Shown here piece by piece: positions 4,927 through 44,437 of a stretch of 49,576 nucleotides of DNA. The notes under the pieces were generated by a model. That model searched no databases, was not told where the DNA came from, and worked only from the letters and a program-made list of their open reading frames with translations. Position 1 is the stretch's first letter. The number at the start of each line of letters is the position of its first letter. Origin of the DNA: Escherichia phage HK639; the sequence record NC_016158.1; one strand, written 5' to 3'. Position numbers and translations under genes: made by a program.

Positions 4927-5003
4927 CTGCCGTTGAGCGGATGCGACGCGGTGACCGGGTCGGATGACCTATTACCAATGGCCGGAAGGCTGGAGCAAAA
5001 ACA

Positions 5004-5756
5004 ATGAAACTGAAACTTGATGCTAACGGAAATGTGGTCGTTGAAAACGGTATGCCTGTGTACATCCATGATGACGGCAAAGAGATCCCGTTCGACGCAG
5101 CCGCAGCGATGACCAAAATCACCTCCCTGAACGGTGAAGCTAAAACTCACCGTGAAGCGAAGGAGGCGGCGGAAGCCAGTCTCGCGAAATTCTCTGGCAT
5201 CACCGACCCGGCCAAGGCGCTCGAAGCCCTGGAGATGATGACCAAAATCGACCAGAAAAAACTGATCGATGCTGGTGCCGTTGACCAGGTAAAGGCGGAG
5301 ATCACCAAAGTTTTCCAACAGCAACTCGAAGAGGCGAACAGCAAGACCCAGCAACTGGAAACTCAACTCTACGACGAGATGATCGGCGGCCGCTTCGGTG
5401 GCTCCAAATTCATTTCAGAGAAGATGGCGATCCCGGCTGAGTTCGTGCGTTCGTACTTCGGGCAGAACTTCAAAATCGAAGACGGCAAGGTCGTGGCCTT
5501 CGACGGTCAGGGCAATAAGGTGTTCTCTCGCACCAAGCCTGGCGAGCTGGCTAGCTTCGACGAAGCGCTGGAGTCACTGGTCGAGTCGCATCCGCAGAAA
5601 GATTACATCCTCAAAGCGTCCGGTAACAGCGGCGGCGGTTCTCACCAGTCGCAGCACCAGGCCGGGCAAAAAACCATGAAACGCGATGCGTTTGATGCAT
5701 TACCTCCAGCAGAGCAACAGGCTGTGATTGGCGGCGGCACAAGCATCGTTGATTAA
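5004..5756 (+). CDS. scaffolding protein
   Basis: 250 aa, Ala/Glu/Lys-rich coiled-coil-like composition, directly upstream of the major capsid gene. Confidence 0.6.
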   Translation: MKLKLDANGNVVVENGMPVYIHDDGKEIPFDAAAAMTKITSLNGEAKTHREAKEAAEASLAKFSGITDPAKALEALEMMTKIDQKKLIDAGAVDQVKAEITKVFQQQLEEANSKTQQLETQLYDEMIGGRFGGSKFISEKMAIPAEFVRSYFGQNFKIEDGKVVAFDGQGNKVFSRTKPGELASFDEALESLVESHPQKDYILKASGNSGGGSHQSQHQAGQKTMKRDAFDALPPAEQQAVIGGGTSIVD

Positions 5757-19171: not shown

Positions 19172-22100
19172 ATGGAAGCGATCACTGGTGCAAAGGGTGG
19201 CAGCCAGAAGCAGCACACACCTGTAGAACAGCCCGATTCGGCGCAGTCAATGGCGCGCTGCCGCATGCTGCTGGCGCTCGGGGAGGGGGAGTTTGCTGGT
19301 GGCCTGGATGCGACCCGGATATTCCTGGACGGTACGCCGTTGGGAAACCCCGACGGAACGATGAATTTTGAAAATGTGTCATGGGATTTCCGGCCTGGCA
19401 CACAGACCCAGACACCAATACCGGGATTCCCTGCAGTCGAGAATGAAACTACGGTTGGCGTATCGCTGACAAAGGCCACACCATGGACGCGCGCGCTGAG
19501 TAATACCCAGATTGACGCGGTTCTCGTTCGTATTGGTATACCTGGATTGCAGCAGCAGGAAAACGACGGAGACATTGTCGGAACTACTGTCACATATCAC
19601 ATCGACATTGCGGTTGATGGCGGGGCATACCAGACAATGCTAACCAAAACGGTTACTGAAAAACTCAGTTCGCTGTATGAGCTGACCCATCGCATTAATC
19701 TTCCGAAAGCCAGTACGGGCTGGCAGATTCGCGTGGTACGCGACACTGACGACAGCACCAGCCAGATGTTGCAGAATAAAACGCAGGTACAGGCAATCAC
19801 TGAGGTGATTGATGCGCGCCTGCGCTATCCCCATACGGCGCTGCTGTATGTGTCGTTCAACGCCAAATCGTTCAACAATATCCCGAAGATTTCCTGTAAA
19901 CCGAAGGGGCGTATTATCCGCATCCCTTCGAATTACGATCCGATAGCCCGAACCTATAGCGGCACATGGGACGGGACATTTAAGTGGGGCTGGACGAATA
20001 ACCCAGCGTGGATCTGGTTCGATGTGCTCACTGAGCCGCGTTTCGGACTTGGCCGCCGTGTGACGCCAGAAATGCTCGATAAATGGGAGCTTTATCGCAT
20101 AGCGCAGCGCTGTGATCAGCTTGTACCAGATGGAAAAGGCGGTAGCGGTACAGAGCCGCGCTTCATGTTTGACGTGTACATTCAGGCGCAGGCCGACGCC
20201 TGGCAGGTGATCAAGGATATCGCCGCAGGCTTTAACGGCATGACGTTCTGGGGCAACAACATGTTCAATGTTGTCTCTGACATGCCGGCGGACACGTCGA
20301 AGCTGCAAATCCTTACCCGCGCTTCGGTGGTGGGCAAGCCGGTTTACTCGAGCGGCAGTGAAAAGACCCGCTTCTCCAGCGCGCTGATTAACTTCAGCGA
20401 CCCTGACAATCACTATCAGGACCGCACGACAGCGGTGATGTTCCCGGATCTGGTTAAGCAGTTCAAGTTTAAGCAGACGCAGATCACCGCAATCGGCTGT
20501 ACGCGCGAGAGCGAAGCGCAGCGCCGTGGCGGGTGGGCGGTGTATTCCAACTCACTCGACAGGATGATTACGCTACAGACCGGGCTTGATGGCTATGTCT
20601 ACGTGCCGGGTACCGTATTTGCATTTGCCGACGAACGCCTTTCAGGGCGTGTTTATGGTGGGCGCATCACCGAGTACAATTCCGGGATTAAGGCAGTGAC
20701 CACTGACCGCGGTACCAGCGCGGTGGCTGGCGATACACTGATGATTCGCACGCAGGGCGGTGCCGTTGAAAGCAGAGTGATTCAGGCCGTAAACGGCACG
20801 CAGCTGGTGGTTGCCACGCCTTTCACGGCAGAGCCGTTACCAAACGCTGTATTCGTCATCGATGCCGGGCAGTTGCGCCTGCAATACTTCCGCGTTACGA
20901 ACCTGAGATTTGATGATGAAGAAAACACCTTCACAATCACCGGGGCTGAGTATAACGCATCAAAATATGATGCGGTCGATAACAATGCCCGCCTGGATGC
21001 GCCGCCAGTCAGCCTGTTACCGACTGGTGTTGTAAGCCAGCCTGCCAACATCGCGGTAGCGAGCTATGACGCAGTACGCCAGGGGCAGCGAGTGGCCACC
21101 TTGACTGCATCATGGGATGCGCCGGTCGACAAGAACGGCAAACCACAGGCAGATGTCATAGCCTATCGCGTGCAGTGGAAGCGCGGCGACAATGAGTGGG
21201 TTAACGTGCCGGATACAGGGCTGCGCAATATCGAAGTTCCTGGCATCTTCGATGGTGATTATCTGGTACGTGTACGCGCCATCAACTCAGGAGGTGCGTC
21301 TAGCCTCTGGACAACGTCTGCTCTTACACACCTAAAGGGGCGCGCTGGTGACGTTCCAAAACCTGTAGGGCTAACAGCATCTGAAGATGTCGTTTTTGGG
21401 ATCAATATCACTTGGGGATTCCCTGCTGATACCTCAGACACATTAAGCACAGAGCTGCAATACAGCGTTACGGCTGACGGTTCAAATCCTATTTTGTTGG
21501 CGTCTGTACCTTATCCTCTAAAACTTTATCAGCAGATGGGCCTTAAGGCCGGTCAGGAATTCTGGTACCGCGCACAGCTGGTTGACCGAACCGGTAACGA
21601 ATCAGGATACACAGAATGGGTTCGTGGGCAGGCAAGTATAGATGTTTCTGATGTCTCCAGTGTGATTTTGGAGGACATGAAGGAATCTCAGACGTTCAAA
21701 GACCTGATCGAGAGCGCAGTGGACAGCAATGCAAAAATTGCTGGCATGGCTGATGATATCCTGCAGGCGAACAATCAGCTCGAACAGCAGGCGCTGGATA
21801 TTCAGGAAAATTCTGATGCTCTGGCGCAAGCTGCGGTGAAGATCGACGAAATGTCTGTCTCCATGGACGGCATGACGGGAGGCGTGAAGAACTCGGCCAT
21901 AGCTATCATCCAGGGCAACCTCGCACAGGTGGCAGCGCGTAAAACACTGACTGCGTCGGTCGCCGGTAACAGCGCGCAGCTTGACCGAATTGATGAAGTG
22001 ATCGTTAACGAGAAGGAGGCAACGGCGCGCGCTCTGCTGAGCCTGCAGACGGACGTTAACGGCAACAAGGCATCCATCAACAGCCTCAATCAGACGTTCT

Positions 22101-22636
22101 CGGATTACCAGCAGGCTATGGCCACGCAGGTAAACAGCATCACGGCGACCGTCAATGGCCACACTTCTGCGATCACCACCAACGCGCAGGCCATTGCCAA
22201 CGTCAACGGCGACCTGAAGGCGATGTACAACATCAAGGTTGGTGTCTCCAGCAACGGGCAGTATTACGCCGCGGGGATGGGGATCGGCGTGGAGAATACG
22301 CCATCCGGCATGCAGTCGCAGGTTATCTTCCTGGCTGATCGCTTCGCAGTCACCACGGCGGCCGGAAACAGCGTGGCTTTGCCATTCGTGATCCAGAACG
22401 GGCAGACATTCATCCGGGCCAGCTTCATTCAGGACGGCACCATTGACAACGCCAAAATCGGCAACTATATCCAGTCGAATAATTATGTGGCTGGATCTGC
22501 AGGCTGGAAGCTTGATAAGGGAGGGACGTTCGAAATTAACGGTGTGGCCGGGGGCGGGAGGATGCTGATATCCAGCACTCTCATTCGCATCTACGACAGC
22601 AACAACGTGCTGCGCGTCAGAATGGGGTTATGGTAA
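19172..22636 (+). CDS. J: tail tip / host specificity protein J
   Basis: 1154 aa; position after I; lambda J-like length and architecture with fibronectin-like repeats and C-terminal receptor-binding region. Confidence 0.85.
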   Translation: MEAITGAKGGSQKQHTPVEQPDSAQSMARCRMLLALGEGEFAGGLDATRIFLDGTPLGNPDGTMNFENVSWDFRPGTQTQTPIPGFPAVENETTVGVSLTKATPWTRALSNTQIDAVLVRIGIPGLQQQENDGDIVGTTVTYHIDIAVDGGAYQTMLTKTVTEKLSSLYELTHRINLPKASTGWQIRVVRDTDDSTSQMLQNKTQVQAITEVIDARLRYPHTALLYVSFNAKSFNNIPKISCKPKGRIIRIPSNYDPIARTYSGTWDGTFKWGWTNNPAWIWFDVLTEPRFGLGRRVTPEMLDKWELYRIAQRCDQLVPDGKGGSGTEPRFMFDVYIQAQADAWQVIKDIAAGFNGMTFWGNNMFNVVSDMPADTSKLQILTRASVVGKPVYSSGSEKTRFSSALINFSDPDNHYQDRTTAVMFPDLVKQFKFKQTQITAIGCTRESEAQRRGGWAVYSNSLDRMITLQTGLDGYVYVPGTVFAFADERLSGRVYGGRITEYNSGIKAVTTDRGTSAVAGDTLMIRTQGGAVESRVIQAVNGTQLVVATPFTAEPLPNAVFVIDAGQLRLQYFRVTNLRFDDEENTFTITGAEYNASKYDAVDNNARLDAPPVSLLPTGVVSQPANIAVASYDAVRQGQRVATLTASWDAPVDKNGKPQADVIAYRVQWKRGDNEWVNVPDTGLRNIEVPGIFDGDYLVRVRAINSGGASSLWTTSALTHLKGRAGDVPKPVGLTASEDVVFGINITWGFPADTSDTLSTELQYSVTADGSNPILLASVPYPLKLYQQMGLKAGQEFWYRAQLVDRTGNESGYTEWVRGQASIDVSDVSSVILEDMKESQTFKDLIESAVDSNAKIAGMADDILQANNQLEQQALDIQENSDALAQAAVKIDEMSVSMDGMTGGVKNSAIAIIQGNLAQVAARKTLTASVAGNSAQLDRIDEVIVNEKEATARALLSLQTDVNGNKASINSLNQTFSDYQQAMATQVNSITATVNGHTSAITTNAQAIANVNGDLKAMYNIKVGVSSNGQYYAAGMGIGVENTPSGMQSQVIFLADRFAVTTAAGNSVALPFVIQNGQTFIRASFIQDGTIDNAKIGNYIQSNNYVAGSAGWKLDKGGTFEINGVAGGGRMLISSTLIRIYDSNNVLRVRMGLW

Positions 22637-22932: not shown

Positions 22933-23570
22933 GCGGATTCGAAGTTTACAACAGCGCCGGGAAACTGCTGGTGGACTCGCAAAACAGGTCGACCATGTTT
23001 TACGATCAGCGCGCGCTGGGGGCCGTAACCGACAAAGGCTTTTACCGTGTTGATAGCCCGTTTGGTGATGGCAGCACACTCGGCGGCACTCCTCAGGCAT
23101 TCTGGAATGACGGGCGCTTAAGGTGGCTGCAGCTGGGTACGAACAAATACGGTTTTCCTGGTGCTGATATGCTTGAAGATAATGCTGGAAGCATGATCCG
23201 AACAGCGCGAAATATTGGCATCCAGAGCGGCTATCTCGATGTGTTTGATAGCGCCGGCAGCCTTATCTGGAGTGCAGCATCAGCCTCTAAGATGCCGAGA
23301 GTTGTTGGGTTCTTTGACGTACCAGCGAACTATGACCTGCAGAACAATACCTTTTCAGTCAGTTTAAGCTTCAACCCCTGGATTTTGATAAACAACTGCC
23401 CGGGGAATCTCAGCGATGATGGCACGGTTGTCGGGTATTCAGGAGTGGTGCTCAAATGGACTGGCTCACAGCTGCAGGGCAGATATATATCAAAAAATCA
23501 GCGCAACTGGAGCCAGACGTTTCAGGGACGGGGCTTAAGAATCCCCATCGCTCAGTTTGTTGGAATTTGA
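22929..23570 (+). CDS. hypothetical tail-region protein with repeated SAG motif
   Basis: 213 aa; EVYNSAGKLLVDS and VFDSAGSLIWSA repeats. Confidence 0.5.
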   Translation: MSGFEVYNSAGKLLVDSQNRSTMFYDQRALGAVTDKGFYRVDSPFGDGSTLGGTPQAFWNDGRLRWLQLGTNKYGFPGADMLEDNAGSMIRTARNIGIQSGYLDVFDSAGSLIWSAASASKMPRVVGFFDVPANYDLQNNTFSVSLSFNPWILINNCPGNLSDDGTVVGYSGVVLKWTGSQLQGRYISKNQRNWSQTFQGRGLRIPIAQFVGI

Positions 23571-23897
23571 CACGGGAGGAACGCGTGGATAATGAGTCGC
23601 GATCATATCTTGTTTCACGCCCTTTGCTGAATTAAAGCGATAAACCACATCCAGCTTTTCCGTTTTTTTATAGCAAATATTACTTAACCGTTTATTAATA
23701 TGGCGGCTGAATATTCCGTTGCTACTGTCTGAAATAATATCCACCTCTCTGGTGGCGCAGTCGATATTTACATGAATATCACCACCCAGCGATAAACGAG
23801 CTGCATCAACCGGGTAATCCATCTGGAATGCGTTATCTGTGTGTGTGTTCGTACATCCAGCCACCAGCAAAAGCGCTGCAGCAAATAAAAGTTTCAT
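23535..23897 (-). CDS. lipoprotein (moron), candidate superinfection-exclusion protein
   Basis: 120 aa; MKLLFAAALLLVAGC lipobox signal; opposite strand to all flanking tail genes; AT-richer; RBS AGGAATG. Confidence 0.55.
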   Translation of the reverse strand: MKLLFAAALLLVAGCTNTHTDNAFQMDYPVDAARLSLGGDIHVNIDCATREVDIISDSSNGIFSRHINKRLSNICYKKTEKLDVVYRFNSAKGVKQDMIATHYPRVPPVSNSNKLSDGDS

Positions 23898-24023: not shown

Positions 24024-25277
24024 ATGCTTTATAACACCGGCACCATCGCAATTAACGGAAATACCGCAACCGGCACCGGCACAAACTGGACAGCTCCCGC
24101 CAGCCAGGTTCGCTCTGGCCAGACAATTATCGTCATGTCTAACCCGGTGCAGCTGTTCCAGATTTCATCCGTGAACAGCGCCACGTCAATGACGGTTACG
24201 CCTGCCGCTTCCCCGGCGCTGAGCGGCCAGAAGTATGGAATTCTTGTGTCGGACATTATCTCAGTCGACGGCCTGGCACAGGCCATGTCGCAGCTCATCA
24301 AAGAGTACGACGAGAACATTGGCGCGTGGGAGACGTTCGCTACTACCTCAGCAAACCAGACCATCACCGTAACCATCAACGGCACCCCTGTAACGATCCC
24401 CGGCATCGGCAAACTAGCTCTGAAAGGGAGTAACGGTGCGCTGGCTGTTGCTGACGGCGGAACCGGAGCAACTAAGGCAGAAGACGCTCGCACAAACCTC
24501 GGTTTGGGAAGTAGCGCCACGAGGAACGCATACAGCTCCACCGGGGATATGCTTTCAGTAGGTGATTTTGGATTAGGATCGACAAGTGCTCCCGGACTTA
24601 ATGATGCTAATTTGGGACGTCAGACAGCTTTCTCTGCGGCTGGCGGTGCTGGTGCAGTTAACTTTTTCGATGCGTATTCTCCGTTGCTATCAATGGTAAG
24701 AACCACTTCAACAGCGGTACAGATGCAGATAACAGCAGCTGGTAAATCTGCAGTTAGAGGGTGTAATGCGGGGAACTGGACACCGTGGTACGAACTTTAT
24801 TCAACTCAAAATACAACGAAATCCAGCGATGGAACCCTTAAGGCTGCGTCTCCGGTTGCCCGTATCGTAGCGAGCCAGGAAGCCTGCCAGCGCGCCGATA
24901 TAGCGGAGGATGGCTTCTCCTGGTGCGGCTGTGGGACGGCGAACACTGAGGCGGAGGGAATAACCATTTCTCGCCTCGAGGTGGGCGTTTACGTGCTGGC
25001 AGGTTCGGCAGGCTTGGCGTCCGAGGGATGGCAGCTACTGCCACCAATGGACCCCGGCGGCATGGGAGAGCTGGGAGTGGTTGAGGCAGAGCAAACCGAT
25101 AGCGGCGAGCTGACAATCCGTCTTTTCAAGCGAAAATATATCCTGAGCGATGAAGGTGAGGTCATCAAAACCAAAGGTGAACCGATTGACGTCCCGGCGA
25201 ACAGCTGGATCGATGTTCGTCTGGATATGCCAGCGGATAGCATCTGGAACACCAAAGTTTCCGGTTCTTCTCTCTAA
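24024..25277 (+). CDS. side tail fibre protein
   Basis: 417 aa; conserved phage tail-fibre N-terminal region followed by Gly/Ala/Thr/Ser-rich repeats; RBS GAGGT. Confidence 0.7.
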   Translation: MLYNTGTIAINGNTATGTGTNWTAPASQVRSGQTIIVMSNPVQLFQISSVNSATSMTVTPAASPALSGQKYGILVSDIISVDGLAQAMSQLIKEYDENIGAWETFATTSANQTITVTINGTPVTIPGIGKLALKGSNGALAVADGGTGATKAEDARTNLGLGSSATRNAYSSTGDMLSVGDFGLGSTSAPGLNDANLGRQTAFSAAGGAGAVNFFDAYSPLLSMVRTTSTAVQMQITAAGKSAVRGCNAGNWTPWYELYSTQNTTKSSDGTLKAASPVARIVASQEACQRADIAEDGFSWCGCGTANTEAEGITISRLEVGVYVLAGSAGLASEGWQLLPPMDPGGMGELGVVEAEQTDSGELTIRLFKRKYILSDEGEVIKTKGEPIDVPANSWIDVRLDMPADSIWNTKVSGSSL

Positions 25278-25391
25278 CTCCAGTGACAACCTGCCGAAAT
25301 TCAGCCTTAAAAATTAATAGGCGAACCCAAATAGATCTACACCTCCTTTAATAGTACTGTATGTATAAACAGTGCTAAAGAGGTGCAGAAC

Positions 25392-25781
25392 ATGGGATTC
25401 CCATCTCCAGCAGCAGACTATGTTGAAGATCGCATATCGCTCGACAAACGGCTTATCGCGCATCCGGCAGCCACGTACATGATGATAGCGGGCTCTACAT
25501 ACCTGCGAGCTGGCATAATGAAGGGCGCAATGCTTATCGTCGACTCGTCGCTGACACCAAAAGACGGTTCTCTTCTGGTGTGCGCTATAGACGGTGAGTT
25601 CAGGATTATGCGTTACAGGACGCATCCGCAGCCTTGTCTGGAAAACCCTGAAAATGGAAGGAGGGAGTCGTTACCGTTGAAAGACGATGTGTCGGATACA
25701 TCGCGGCCGGTGTTTGGGGTGATCACCTACAGCATCAACGATGCGCGTTCTGGTGAGTTCGACGACTGCCCGGTGATGTAA
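25392..25781 (+). CDS. UmuD'-like protein (S24 LexA/UmuD fold, begins at position equivalent to UmuD cleavage site)
   Basis: [29 protein letters not shown] resembles E. coli UmuD residues from Gly25 ([28 protein letters not shown]); C-terminal VFGVITY resembles VFGVVIHV; GDSM and VKKL catalytic motifs not conserved (GSTY, IMRY). Confidence 0.65.
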   Translation: [129 protein letters not shown]

Positions 25782-25938
25782 TGGGGAAACTGCATAGCTA
25801 TGCCAGGCTGCATGGCTGTGCATTCTCTGTGTCACAGATGTGTCATGCATTAATGAGCAATAACGAAACGCGGAAGCATAGAACGACACGCAATGACACA
25901 AATCCGGCGCGAGCGCGGAAAAACTAATGATATTACAG

Positions 25939-26006
25939 TGTGTTAAATGGTGCTCTACGTTCTTCTAAGCCGTAGGTCGTAGGTTCGAATCCTACAGGGC
26001 GTGCCA
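25939..26006 (+). other. tRNA-Arg(UCU)-like 3' segment ending in CCA; candidate attP core
   Basis: Anticodon-loop-like CTTCTAA, T-arm GTAGG-TTCGAAT-CCTAC, acceptor AGGGCGT-G-CCA; no matching 5' acceptor strand upstream; 15 nt from int stop. Confidence 0.55.
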
Positions 26007-26021
26007 TTTAAAAACAGTCGC

Positions 26022-27185
26022 TTACGCCAGTTTCAAGCCAGCCTGATTTTCTCCTTGTGTCGTATTTGTGTCATGGTTGCCAAAAATGGCATCAATTTTC
26101 CGTGCGTGTTCGCTTAAGTGGTTCGGTGCCAGGTGAGCGTATCGACGTACCATTTCGATGGACTCCCAGCCGCCCATTTCTTGCAGAACTGACAACGGAA
26201 CGCCGGACTGAATTAACCAGCTCGCCCAGGTATGCCGGAGGTCATGAAAACGGAAGTCTTCTATACCCGCTCTTTCCAGTCCAATGCGCCAGGCGACATT
26301 GTCATCCACTCGCATTTTGCGGACAGCCGGAGTGACGGTTTTATCCGGGCGCGTTGATGGCTTCGTGTGAACGAATACCCACCTGGAACTTTTCCCGATC
26401 TGATCCCTTAACACCCTGCATGCGGTATCATTCAGAGCCACGCCGATAGCCTTGCCCGCCTTCGCGTTCTCCGGATTTACCCATGCAACCTTTCTCTGCA
26501 TATCGACCTGCTGCCACTCCAGATCAATGATGTTGGAGCGGCGCAGGCCGGTTGCCAGTGCAAATATCACCACCGGCTTTATCGACTCCGGCATGCAGGA
26601 GATAAGCCGTTCTGCCTCGTCCCTGGTCAGCCATCGGATGCGTTTGCTGATCGGCTTTTTCGTTTTTATAACCGGGGCCGTTTTAATCCAGCCCCAGTCA
26701 TTAGCCGCAGCCTTGAACAGAGATCGCATGAAAGAAAGGTGCTGACTCTTTGTGGCCTGGCTTACCGGTTTCTCAACATACGGAGGCGGTTCCTTCCCCC
26801 GGCGTATAGCCGCGTCCCTGCGCGACTCCCAGACCTGAATATGCTTACGGTTGACCATCTTCGAAACAGCCTCATGAACCTGATCAGCTGTGATGGTTGA
26901 AATATCCCGGCCGGAGAAATGCCGCAGGAAATATTCGATTTTGGTCTTATCGTCATCGAGTGACCGCTTATGCTCCTTCTCACGGAGCCACCTGATGCAA
27001 CATTCCTCAAACGTCCTCGTCGGTAGTTCCCCAATTTTATCCACCCGCCACGCTTCAGCCTTCAGCTTGTCGTGCAGCTCCTGCGCTTGTTTCTTGTCCC
27101 CCGTACCAAGAGATCGTCTAATTCTTTTCCCTGACGGCGTAACGAAATGACAGTGCCAGACGCCGCCTCTGAGGGTGATTGACAT
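26022..27185 (-). CDS. int: tyrosine integrase
   Basis: 387 aa; C-terminal catalytic signature [39 protein letters not shown] (R..H..R..Y). Confidence 0.9.
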
Positions 27186-33693: not shown

Positions 33694-33763
33694 TGGTGGA
33701 GTGCTCCGGATTCGAACCGAAGTTTTCATGGGTGATCAGTCCATGCAGGCCCAGCCACACCCC
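33694..33763 (-). other. tRNA-like element (T-arm, acceptor 3' strand, CCA) of non-canonical structure
   Basis: Minus strand reads GGGGTGT...TTCGG-TTCGAAT-CCGGA-GCACTCC-A-CCA; 5' GGGGTGT can pair with 3' GCACTCC via two G-U pairs; only 35 nt between, so no canonical D/anticodon arms. Confidence 0.3.
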
Positions 33764-36291: not shown

Positions 36292-36981
36292 TCAAAGCTT
36301 GTTGTAAGCAATGGACTCATGGATCAGCGCCTTACCCATGATGTACAGCTGGTCCTGATTTTCTTCTGTCACATACCAGTCTTTGTACGCCGGGTTATCG
36401 GAAAGTACAGCCAACTGCAGACCCTGCATTTGCAGGCGCTTAACGTGGAAGTGCTGCCCGAAGACAAACGCATACACCCCGTCAACTTTGAAGTTCCTCA
36501 CTGAAACGTCAAAGAAGAGGCGATCGCCAGACTGTATTGTCGGGCACATGCTGTCGCCGTCTACGGTCATCACCTTCACATCATTTTGAGTGCGGTTCCC
36601 GAAAAGAGATCTGGCATGCTCAGTTGTGAACTCAATAGCATGCAGGACCTCAACAAATTCAGAAATCATAAAAGACCCCGGACCAGCGCTTACTTTCAGG
36701 TCTAAAACATCAACCCGAAAGACATCAATTGTTTCCGAGACCGGTTGGGCCGCCGATGGCACATTACCATCAATCCGCATTTCCCCCACTCCAGAACTAA
36801 GCCATTCCGGCCTTACACCCAGAGCATGAGCTAGCTCGACCATCTTACGGCTGCCGCTCGTTTTACCTGATGTCATCTTTTGAATTGCAGGCTGGGATAT
36901 ACCGACTTTATCAGCCAACTGTCCTTGAGATATGTCAGCGGCCGACATAGCCGCGTTCAGTCGTTCTGCAAATGTTTTCAT
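36292..36981 (-). CDS. cI: CI-type prophage repressor (HTH plus S24 peptidase domain)
   Basis: N-terminal HTH QGQLADKVGISQPAIQKMTSGK; C-terminal S24 domain with GDSM motif (VDGDSMCPTI) and conserved Lys region; divergent from cro. Confidence 0.85.
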   Translation of the reverse strand: MKTFAERLNAAMSAADISQGQLADKVGISQPAIQKMTSGKTSGSRKMVELAHALGVRPEWLSSGVGEMRIDGNVPSAAQPVSETIDVFRVDVLDLKVSAGPGSFMISEFVEVLHAIEFTTEHARSLFGNRTQNDVKVMTVDGDSMCPTIQSGDRLFFDVSVRNFKVDGVYAFVFGQHFHVKRLQMQGLQLAVLSDNPAYKDWYVTEENQDQLYIMGKALIHESIAYNKL

Positions 36982-44362: not shown

Positions 44363-44437
44363 GGGTCAGAAGCACAGCGGTTGTGCGTTCGGCTGTTAAC
44401 CGAATGGTCGAAGGTTCGAATCCTTCCTGTCCCGCCA
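44363..44437 (+). tRNA. tRNA-Asn (anticodon GUU), phage-encoded, one U-U mismatch in acceptor stem
   Basis: Manual fold: acceptor GGGTCAG/CTGTCCC, D-stem GCAC/GTGC, anticodon stem TTCGG/CCGAA with loop CTGTTAA, T-arm GAAGG-TTCGAAT-CCTTC, discriminator G, CCA. Confidence 0.6.

Follow-up and report, generated by a model that had tools for sequence, protein, structure and literature searches.

The gene at positions 25392-25781 of phage HK639 is, from its sequence, a member of the HumD family, that is, a UmuD homolog borne on mobile elements and made directly in the UmuD' form. We consider it likely that its product is an SOS-induced, pre-activated UmuD' that would partner the UmuC of the host as a Pol V-like translesion polymerase. 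Our analysis covered a window of 49.6 kb (49,576 nucleotides), which is the whole stretch of HK639 DNA and represents a lambdoid temperate phage genome with the terminase at its left end, followed by the late genes. The features of this window on which the argument draws are as follows.

19172-22636, strand not given: central tail fiber J, given for the genome layout
24024-25277, strand not given: tail fiber, the last late-gene feature before humD
25332-25337, plus strand: -35-like TAGATC, 17 nt upstream of TACTGT (family consensus TTGATC)
25355-25374, plus strand: LexA (SOS) box, the first half of which doubles as the -10-like TACTGT
25380-25385, plus strand: Shine-Dalgarno sequence GAGGTG, read from the sequence, 6 nt 5' of the humD ATG
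25392-25781, plus strand: humD, encoding a 129-aa HumD-family protein, a pre-processed UmuD' homolog
25791-25822, plus strand: hairpin with a 13-bp stem directly 3' of the humD stop, resembling a terminator with a weak T tract
25938-26006, plus strand: attP region with the 3' part of a tRNA-Arg(UCU)-like sequence (Rfam tRNA, 16.6 bits, below the gathering score)
26022-27185, minus strand: tyrosine integrase (PHROG 1, E 1.1e-80), given as context outside the humD cassette
36292-36981, minus strand: phage CI-like repressor with HTH_3 and Peptidase_S24 domains, which keeps the GDSM and VKRL motifs

The HK639 protein scores 215.1 bits against the NCBIfam equivalog NF051876, “HumD family translesion DNA polymerase” (cutoff 120), and its residues 1-129 span the model from end to end (positions 1-129 of 129). 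Against the model for canonical Pol V UmuD (NCBIfam NF007621 / PRK10276) it reached 92 bits, below the cutoff of 110, and the LexA model TIGR00498 gave 37.6 bits, below its cutoff of 110.95, with only LexA positions 90-189 matched. Pfam Peptidase_S24 (PF00717) matches at 34.4 bits (cutoff 23.3), and the assignment in PHROGs is PHROG 811 (UmuD-like). With an E value of 2.4e-64 in NCBIfam and of 1.8e-21 against the PDB, the resemblance is beyond chance. By tblastn, the protein is 65% identical to P1 HumD over all 129 residues, 64% identical to both N15 gp26 and phiKO2 Gp23, and 73% identical to HK140_028. From an alignment of 55 sequences, AlphaFold2 produced a model with a mean pLDDT of 72.5; values are 85-89 in the core and below 50 at both termini. 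Foldseek searches with this model retrieved UmuD' chains as the best matches (1umu_A first), followed by LexA C-domains, and the S24 beta-fold catalytic domain is thus detected in HumD by both Pfam and Foldseek.

Two other identities were considered for the protein and rejected. It is not a LexA family transcriptional regulator, as it has no N-terminal winged-helix domain and all of its 129 aa are S24 domain; many NCBI records apply this name to HumD homologs despite the lack of a DNA-binding domain, which is an annotation artifact. Nor is it the UmuD of a canonical umuDC operon, given its below-cutoff score and its 3' neighbors, which are a hairpin, attP, and the integrase instead of umuC. 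The HumD phenomenon itself is already known, with P1 HumD dating from 1999, a curated entry in NCBIfam, and an abundant family: relatives number 299 in IMG/VR, and 437 protein clusters match with E of 1e-10 or lower. The earlier note on this DNA had contained neither this curated, widespread family nor the umuDC-type, LexA-controlled promoter described below.

That note had proposed that the product begins at Gly25 of UmuD, the N-terminus of the processed UmuD' form, and this register is borne out by phmmer searches of PDB sequences. Residue 2 of HumD is paired with residue 25 of chain 8gmt_B (full-length UmuD, 139 aa) and with residue 1 of 1umu_A, a crystal chain of UmuD'; the authentic UmuD of E. 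coli K-12 (from NC_000913.3) carries C24/G25, S60, and K97. The Ala/Cys-Gly cleavage site with its preceding removable segment is absent from HumD, which begins at the Gly of that site. The sequence gives an ORF of 129 codons from the ATG at 25392 to the TAA at 25779-25781, and across related humD loci a GGAGGTG is kept at the place equivalent to the Shine-Dalgarno sequence. The frame is closed upstream by a TAG at 25332-25334, and therefore a full-length cleavable UmuD cannot come from this locus. The sole other in-frame start is a GTG at 25383, which lies three codons upstream of the ATG and inside the Shine-Dalgarno sequence. No upstream start giving a cleavable UmuD was found, and a longer cleavable product is ruled out by the TAG, with the GTG adding three codons only.

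The short form is shared across the family. The M-GFPSPA start and the 129-codon length are common to P1, N15, and HK140, and in 78 of 80 related IMG/VR loci the ORF is intact, begins MGFPSPA, and has 128 or 129 codons, one of the two exceptions being interrupted by a contig end; MGFPSP begins the protein in all 80. Four database homologs (P0009, P0019, P0107, and P0115) have N-termini 6-19 residues longer, which translate the LexA box (e.g., ...ILYAYTV...); these longer N-termini are annotation artifacts.

The Ser nucleophile and Lys general base of the self-cleaving S24 peptidases, such as LexA, UmuD, and lambda CI, are both absent from HumD. In HMMER and MAFFT alignments, Thr36 sits in the UmuD Ser60 column (GDSM to GSTY) with a one-residue deletion just before it, and Met73 sits in the Lys97 column (VKKL to IMRY), the same column that is marked by the engineered K97A chain 8gmt_B (TVAKL). 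The two independent alignments concur on the motif replacements proposed earlier, and alignment with UmuD also confirmed the register and the loss of Ser and Lys. HK639 encodes one intact self-cleaving S24 protein, CI, in addition to the dyad-less HumD, and CI serves as an internal control.

Among the best 120 homolog clusters, the Ser60 column holds Thr in 112, Ser in 5, Ala in 2, and Met in 1, and the Lys97 column holds Lys in 57, Met in 55, Arg in 6, and Ser and Leu in 1 each. The commonest pair in these clusters is Thr with Met (53 clusters); P1 HumD retains Ser and Lys, and N15 and HK140 have Thr and Lys. On these alignments, the loss of the dyad is a clade-wide lineage trait and no peculiarity of HK639 humD. 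The median pairwise dN/dS in the Met73 clade is 0.068 (interquartile range 0.053-0.082; 30 distinct sequences), with dS reaching 0.4-0.75 within the clade and up to about 0.75 against HK639 humD. Judged by these ratios, the Met73 clade is under strong purifying selection, with no decay. Such a pattern is expected if the sole job of the dyad, removal of the arm, is obsolete, and that Ser60 and Lys97 have been lost naturally in a clade under purifying selection agrees with the view that UmuD' can function without the protease site.

By analogy with E. coli umuDC, the humD cassette appears to keep an umuDC-type promoter and operator. The LexA box, TACTGTATGTATAAACAGTG, shares 17 of its 20 positions with the consensus, TACTGTATATATATACAGTA, and 17 nt separate its end from the humD ATG. 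A scan for the pattern CTGT-N8-ACAG found a single occurrence in the 49.6-kb window, at 25357-25372, a count that is not significant alone (0.47 expected; 37 of 100 shuffles have at least one); the case for the box is made by its position, the 17/20 match, and its conservation rather than by this count. The gap from box to ATG is 19 nt for P1 humD, 14 nt for N15, and 19 nt for E. coli umuD. In the 80 related IMG/VR loci, the box is 14-17 nt from the ATG in 52 and 42-46 nt in 3, and 22 further loci have one about 254-283 nt from humD on the 5' side, before a small ORF of the same orientation, giving a LexA box before humD or its small upstream gene in 77 of the 80 viral loci.

Most related loci also have TTGATC and TACTGT separated by 17 nt, a promoter geometry identical to that of E. 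coli umuDC (TTGATC TGCTGGCAAGAACAGAC TACTGT). The -35-like TAGATC of HK639 is weaker than the family TTGATC, which counts against our main explanation. A generic sigma-70 promoter scan near humD returned nothing on the plus strand, because TACTGT is a poor -10; it took the comparison of loci to reveal the umuDC-like spacing. At the other end of the gene, the terminator-like hairpin of HK639 has a counterpart in N15, where a rho-independent terminator is annotated after gp26.

About a quarter of related loci have, ahead of humD, a small ORF (about 79 aa) with a stop codon that overlaps the humD start. Examples are HK140_027 (L001, 2762-3001) and about 22 IMG/VR loci (e.g., L045-L061 and L072-L084); in HK140, the LexA box separates HK140_027 from a divergent dinI. 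Pfam searches with the protein of about 79 aa gave nothing significant (WVELL at 16 bits, below cutoff). The HK639 window does not have the small upstream ORF found in HK140-type loci.

As proposed earlier, humD adjoins attP: it is the last gene before the tRNA-Arg-like fragment, after which come the integrase, the excisionase, and CI. The fragment comprises an anticodon stem-loop, T arm, acceptor 3' strand, and CCA without a valid 5' half. A full tRNA at this place was rejected, as ARAGORN calls none and the Rfam score is sub-threshold; a 3' fragment is as expected for attP. Related Klebsiella phage records have an integrase and a tRNA-Arg annotated at the corresponding place, and the DNA of the integrase is about 96% identical to that of Enterobacter phages ENT1 and BHUENT3. 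In the eight loci whose sequence continues beyond the tRNA fragment (L006, L019, L024, L038, L064, L068, L073, and L075), similarity to the window ends at about 25984-26030, and in six of them it ends at 26008-26011, which indicates the edge of the att core. In most other related loci, similarity ends within a few bases of the humD stop codon, indicating a module boundary. An ORF of 48 codons at 25781-25927 on the plus strand, which starts in the humD stop codon (TAATG), was rejected as a gene, as it has no Pfam match and is unconserved with humD in most loci; it contains the hairpin with the 13-bp stem and is probably a non-coding attP arm or terminator.

A humD with 95% identity to that of HK639 (P0001; L085-L087 in Enterobacter assemblies, with humD at 5001-5390) is the terminal gene of P22-like prophages. 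These prophages carry a tailspike and the O-antigen conversion genes gtrA, gtrB, and a glycosyltransferase, and abut the host genes yedD, amyA, and fliTSD. The humD gene is thus a mobile moron cassette, located att-proximally in several types of phage, and it moves between unrelated temperate phage types and integration sites. Elsewhere in the window, ARAGORN found a tRNA-Ile(GAT) at 33694-33763 (minus strand) in the early-left region and a tRNA-Asn(GTT) at 44363-44437 (plus strand) in the late regulatory and lysis region. An ORF of 120 aa at 23535-23897 (minus strand), lying between tail genes on the opposite strand, carries a signal of the lipoprotein type (MKLLFAAALLLVAGC) and has a full-length match to PHROG 25729, a group of unknown function; this ORF may be a moron, for example for superinfection exclusion.

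The absence of an umuC partner in the phage, also proposed earlier, was upheld by tblastn with the authentic E. coli UmuC over the whole window, which returned a best E value of 1.9. HumD is accordingly an orphan under a LexA box in a lambdoid phage context, as in the HumD family. Enterobacter is the probable host of HK639-type phages, judging from the closest HumD homologs and the integrase region. We scanned species-representative genomes with a DNA pattern for the UmuC N-terminal motif and then by tblastn. The motif was found in many Enterobacter and Lelliottia genomes, including E. cloacae, E. hormaechei, and E. asburiae, with three complete chromosomes among them, and tblastn confirmed full umuD-umuC operons in Enterobacter and Lelliottia, often in two copies. 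The UmuC proteins encoded there are full length and 83-85% identical to that of E. coli, and the UmuD proteins are 74-81% identical, N-terminal arm included. A search for umuC-like genes in phage and hosts thus found none in the phage and full umuDC operons in Enterobacter and Lelliottia species representatives, which could supply the UmuC partner.

In Enterobacter, two separate full-length umuDC operons per genome were seen in five pairs of loci (L102/L103, L115/L116, L120/L121, L123/L124, and L133/L134), and the UmuC in each of these paired operons is about 83-88% identical to that of E. coli. A literature search for chromosomal umuDC in Enterobacter returned only plasmid-borne umuC/umuD, in E. 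roggenkampii.

A comparison of HumD from HK639 with that of P1 shows extensive likeness. Both proteins are 129 aa long, start MGFPSPA, and share a C-terminal tail ending (I/M), at the 65% identity given above; both genes have a LexA box 17-19 nt before the ATG, no adjacent umuC, and a temperate phage as carrier. They differ in that P1 HumD has its Ser in ADSH and its Lys in IKRY, in place of Thr36 and Met73 in HK639, and in their setting: P1 is a plasmid prophage with humD beside lxr and phd-doc, whereas HK639 humD is the last gene before attP in an integrating lambdoid phage. N15 gp26, phiKO2 Gp23, and HK140_028 occupy the same place as HK639 humD, downstream of the tail-fiber genes at the end of the late region, and HK140_028, the 73% identical homolog, overlaps a putative attP that is annotated there. 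Thr takes the place of Ser60 in N15 and HK140, as in HK639, but the N15/phiKO2/HK140 group retains Lys at the K97 position, unlike Met73 of HK639. HK140 also differs in its extra small upstream ORF with a LexA box ahead, next to the divergent dinI, which HK639 does not have.

MucA, ImpA, RumA, and SamA are likewise SOS-regulated, UmuD-like proteins borne on mobile elements. By description, these are full-length precursors that need cleavage and belong to operons with their own UmuC-type polymerase, which sets them apart from HumD. The E. coli UmuD and UmuD' proteins (PDB 1UMU, 1AY9, 1I4V, and 8GMT) have the S24 fold in common with HumD at about 40% identity from Gly25 to the C-terminus, with an identical 11-residue N-terminal stretch in UmuD' and the same promoter/operator geometry. 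Relative to E. coli UmuD, HumD lacks the 24-residue arm and the Cys24-Gly25 site, has Thr for Ser60 and Met for Lys97, and shows a 1-residue deletion before the nucleophile, the TSRP insertion, and a 10-residue C-terminal extension; it also has no umuC operon.

In the mechanism that we favor, host LexA on the SOS box overlapping the umuDC-type promoter would keep humD off in the lysogen, and inactivation of LexA by DNA damage would allow HumD to be made. HumD has no 24-residue arm, so no RecA*-stimulated self-cleavage would be needed and this step would be skipped; the protein would also be without the arm-borne Lon and ClpX recognition signals. It would then dimerize and bind host UmuC, giving a Pol V-like translesion polymerase without the usual delay. 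With nothing to cleave, the Ser-Lys dyad would be dispensable and could have drifted to Thr36/Met73. Dimerization, UmuC binding, and a mutagenic or damage-tolerance activity are predicted here from the biology of P1 HumD and UmuD'. The P1 protein is reported to dimerize, to bind both UmuC and RecA filaments, and to restore mutagenesis.

The published background is consistent with this mechanism. The arm of UmuD carries a Lon degron and a ClpX tethering signal, and its cleavage activates UmuC for translesion synthesis (PMC5342242). In the P1 GenBank record, the humD entry (AAQ14073) bears the note “DNA repair; functionally complements E. coli UmuD'”, with a LexA site marked just upstream, and one article (PMC7092418) describes HumD as an already-activated short UmuD; the primary report on P1 HumD is cited as McLenigan et al. 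1999, J Bacteriol 181:7005 (PMC94175, PMID 10559166). By analogy, the pre-activated UmuD' role proposed for HK639 HumD is supported as the role reported for the P1 protein. Counting against the main explanation, the experimentally reported member, P1 HumD, retains Ser and Lys, unlike the Thr/Met clade, and the identity to E. coli UmuD' is only about 40%.

Two segments of HumD have no equivalent in UmuD. The C-terminal extension consists of 10 residues (120-129; window 25749-25778) past the last residue of UmuD, and in an alignment of 54 family members G121, E122, F123, D124, D125, C126, and P127 of this tail are each at least 94% conserved. The tail has a low pLDDT in the AlphaFold2 model, as expected for a flexible linear motif. 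Residues 103-106 form a 4-residue insertion, TSRP, that is specific to the HumD family and absent from UmuD. The acidic tail (GEFDDCPVM) appears to resemble the C-terminal tip of SSB (DFDDDIPF). The tail and the insertion could mean an additional or different partner, and this counts against the main explanation. Because the dyad is gone, purifying selection is strong, and the near-invariant acidic tail is probably flexible, we also entertain, as a rather improbable reading, that the Thr/Met HumD gained a function beyond replacing UmuD', for example docking to an SSB-tail-binding partner or to RecA* and so tuning translesion synthesis, recombination, or prophage induction for the phage.

It is unlikely, in our estimation, that HumD of the Thr/Met clade mainly modulates SOS or prophage induction instead of serving as a Pol V subunit. 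Such a modulator could act through the RecA* groove of LexA, CI, and UmuD, by titrating UmuD, UmuD', or UmuC into inactive heterocomplexes, or through a partner recruited by the tail. The loss of both catalytic residues in a clade with a dN/dS of 0.07 can be read in its favor; however, UmuD' function does not need the catalytic dyad, as known from engineered UmuD', which counts against it. The family-specific tail GEFDDCPV, with its conservation of at least 93% and a low pLDDT as for a flexible linear motif, also speaks for a modulator, as do the binding of UmuD to the RecA filament (PDB 8gmt, which is among the structure and sequence matches) and the exchange of subunits between UmuD and UmuD', which favor heterodimers (PMC5342242). 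No data point specifically to inhibition, however, and the P1 member of the family is reported to complement UmuD' in mutagenesis, according to its GenBank note and PMC7092418.

The loss of Ser and Lys bears on two further readings. One is that humD is a decaying, non-functional remnant of a umuD that was truncated at its 5' end, e.g., by recombination near att, as might be suggested by the replaced catalytic residues, the lack of umuC in the window, and the location of humD at a recombination-prone prophage end. Such a remnant does not agree with the conservation of the M-GFPSPA start and 129-codon length in P1, N15, HK140, and 78 of 80 IMG/VR loci, with a full-length match to a curated equivalog model, or with a gene equipped with a Shine-Dalgarno sequence, promoter geometry, and LexA box of its own, and dN/dS is about 0.07 with dS of up to 0.4-0.75 within the clade. 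We regard decay as very improbable, and the selection and conservation data effectively refute it. The other reading, that HumD works as an S24 protease and cuts host UmuD, LexA, or phage CI in trans, is hardly credible. Thr can serve as the nucleophile in some hydrolases, which counts for a trans-acting protease. The active sites of UmuD can also cut the arm of the partner in trans within heterodimers (PMC5342242). Against this, the general base Lys97 is Met in HK639 and in 55 of 120 clusters, and a column that varies among K, M, R, S, and L is not what a maintained active site would show; the one-residue deletion just before the nucleophile position also counts against a protease.

The findings on HK639 humD leave current understanding unchanged. 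The clade-wide Thr/Met replacement under purifying selection, the near-invariant HumD tail with the TSRP insertion, and the retention of umuDC-type promoter geometry across the humD cassette may be unreported in the searchable literature. The strategy of P1 HumD is common: many prophages of the lambdoid and P22-like types carry it as an att-proximal moron, in Enterobacter and related bacteria that include species of clinical importance. A LexA-controlled, pre-activated UmuD' would skip the RecA*-cleavage checkpoint and the arm-dependent proteolysis that delay or limit Pol V. If active, humD could aid the replication of damaged phage DNA, and humD prophages could raise or speed damage-induced mutagenesis in their lysogens and hence the evolution of antibiotic resistance.
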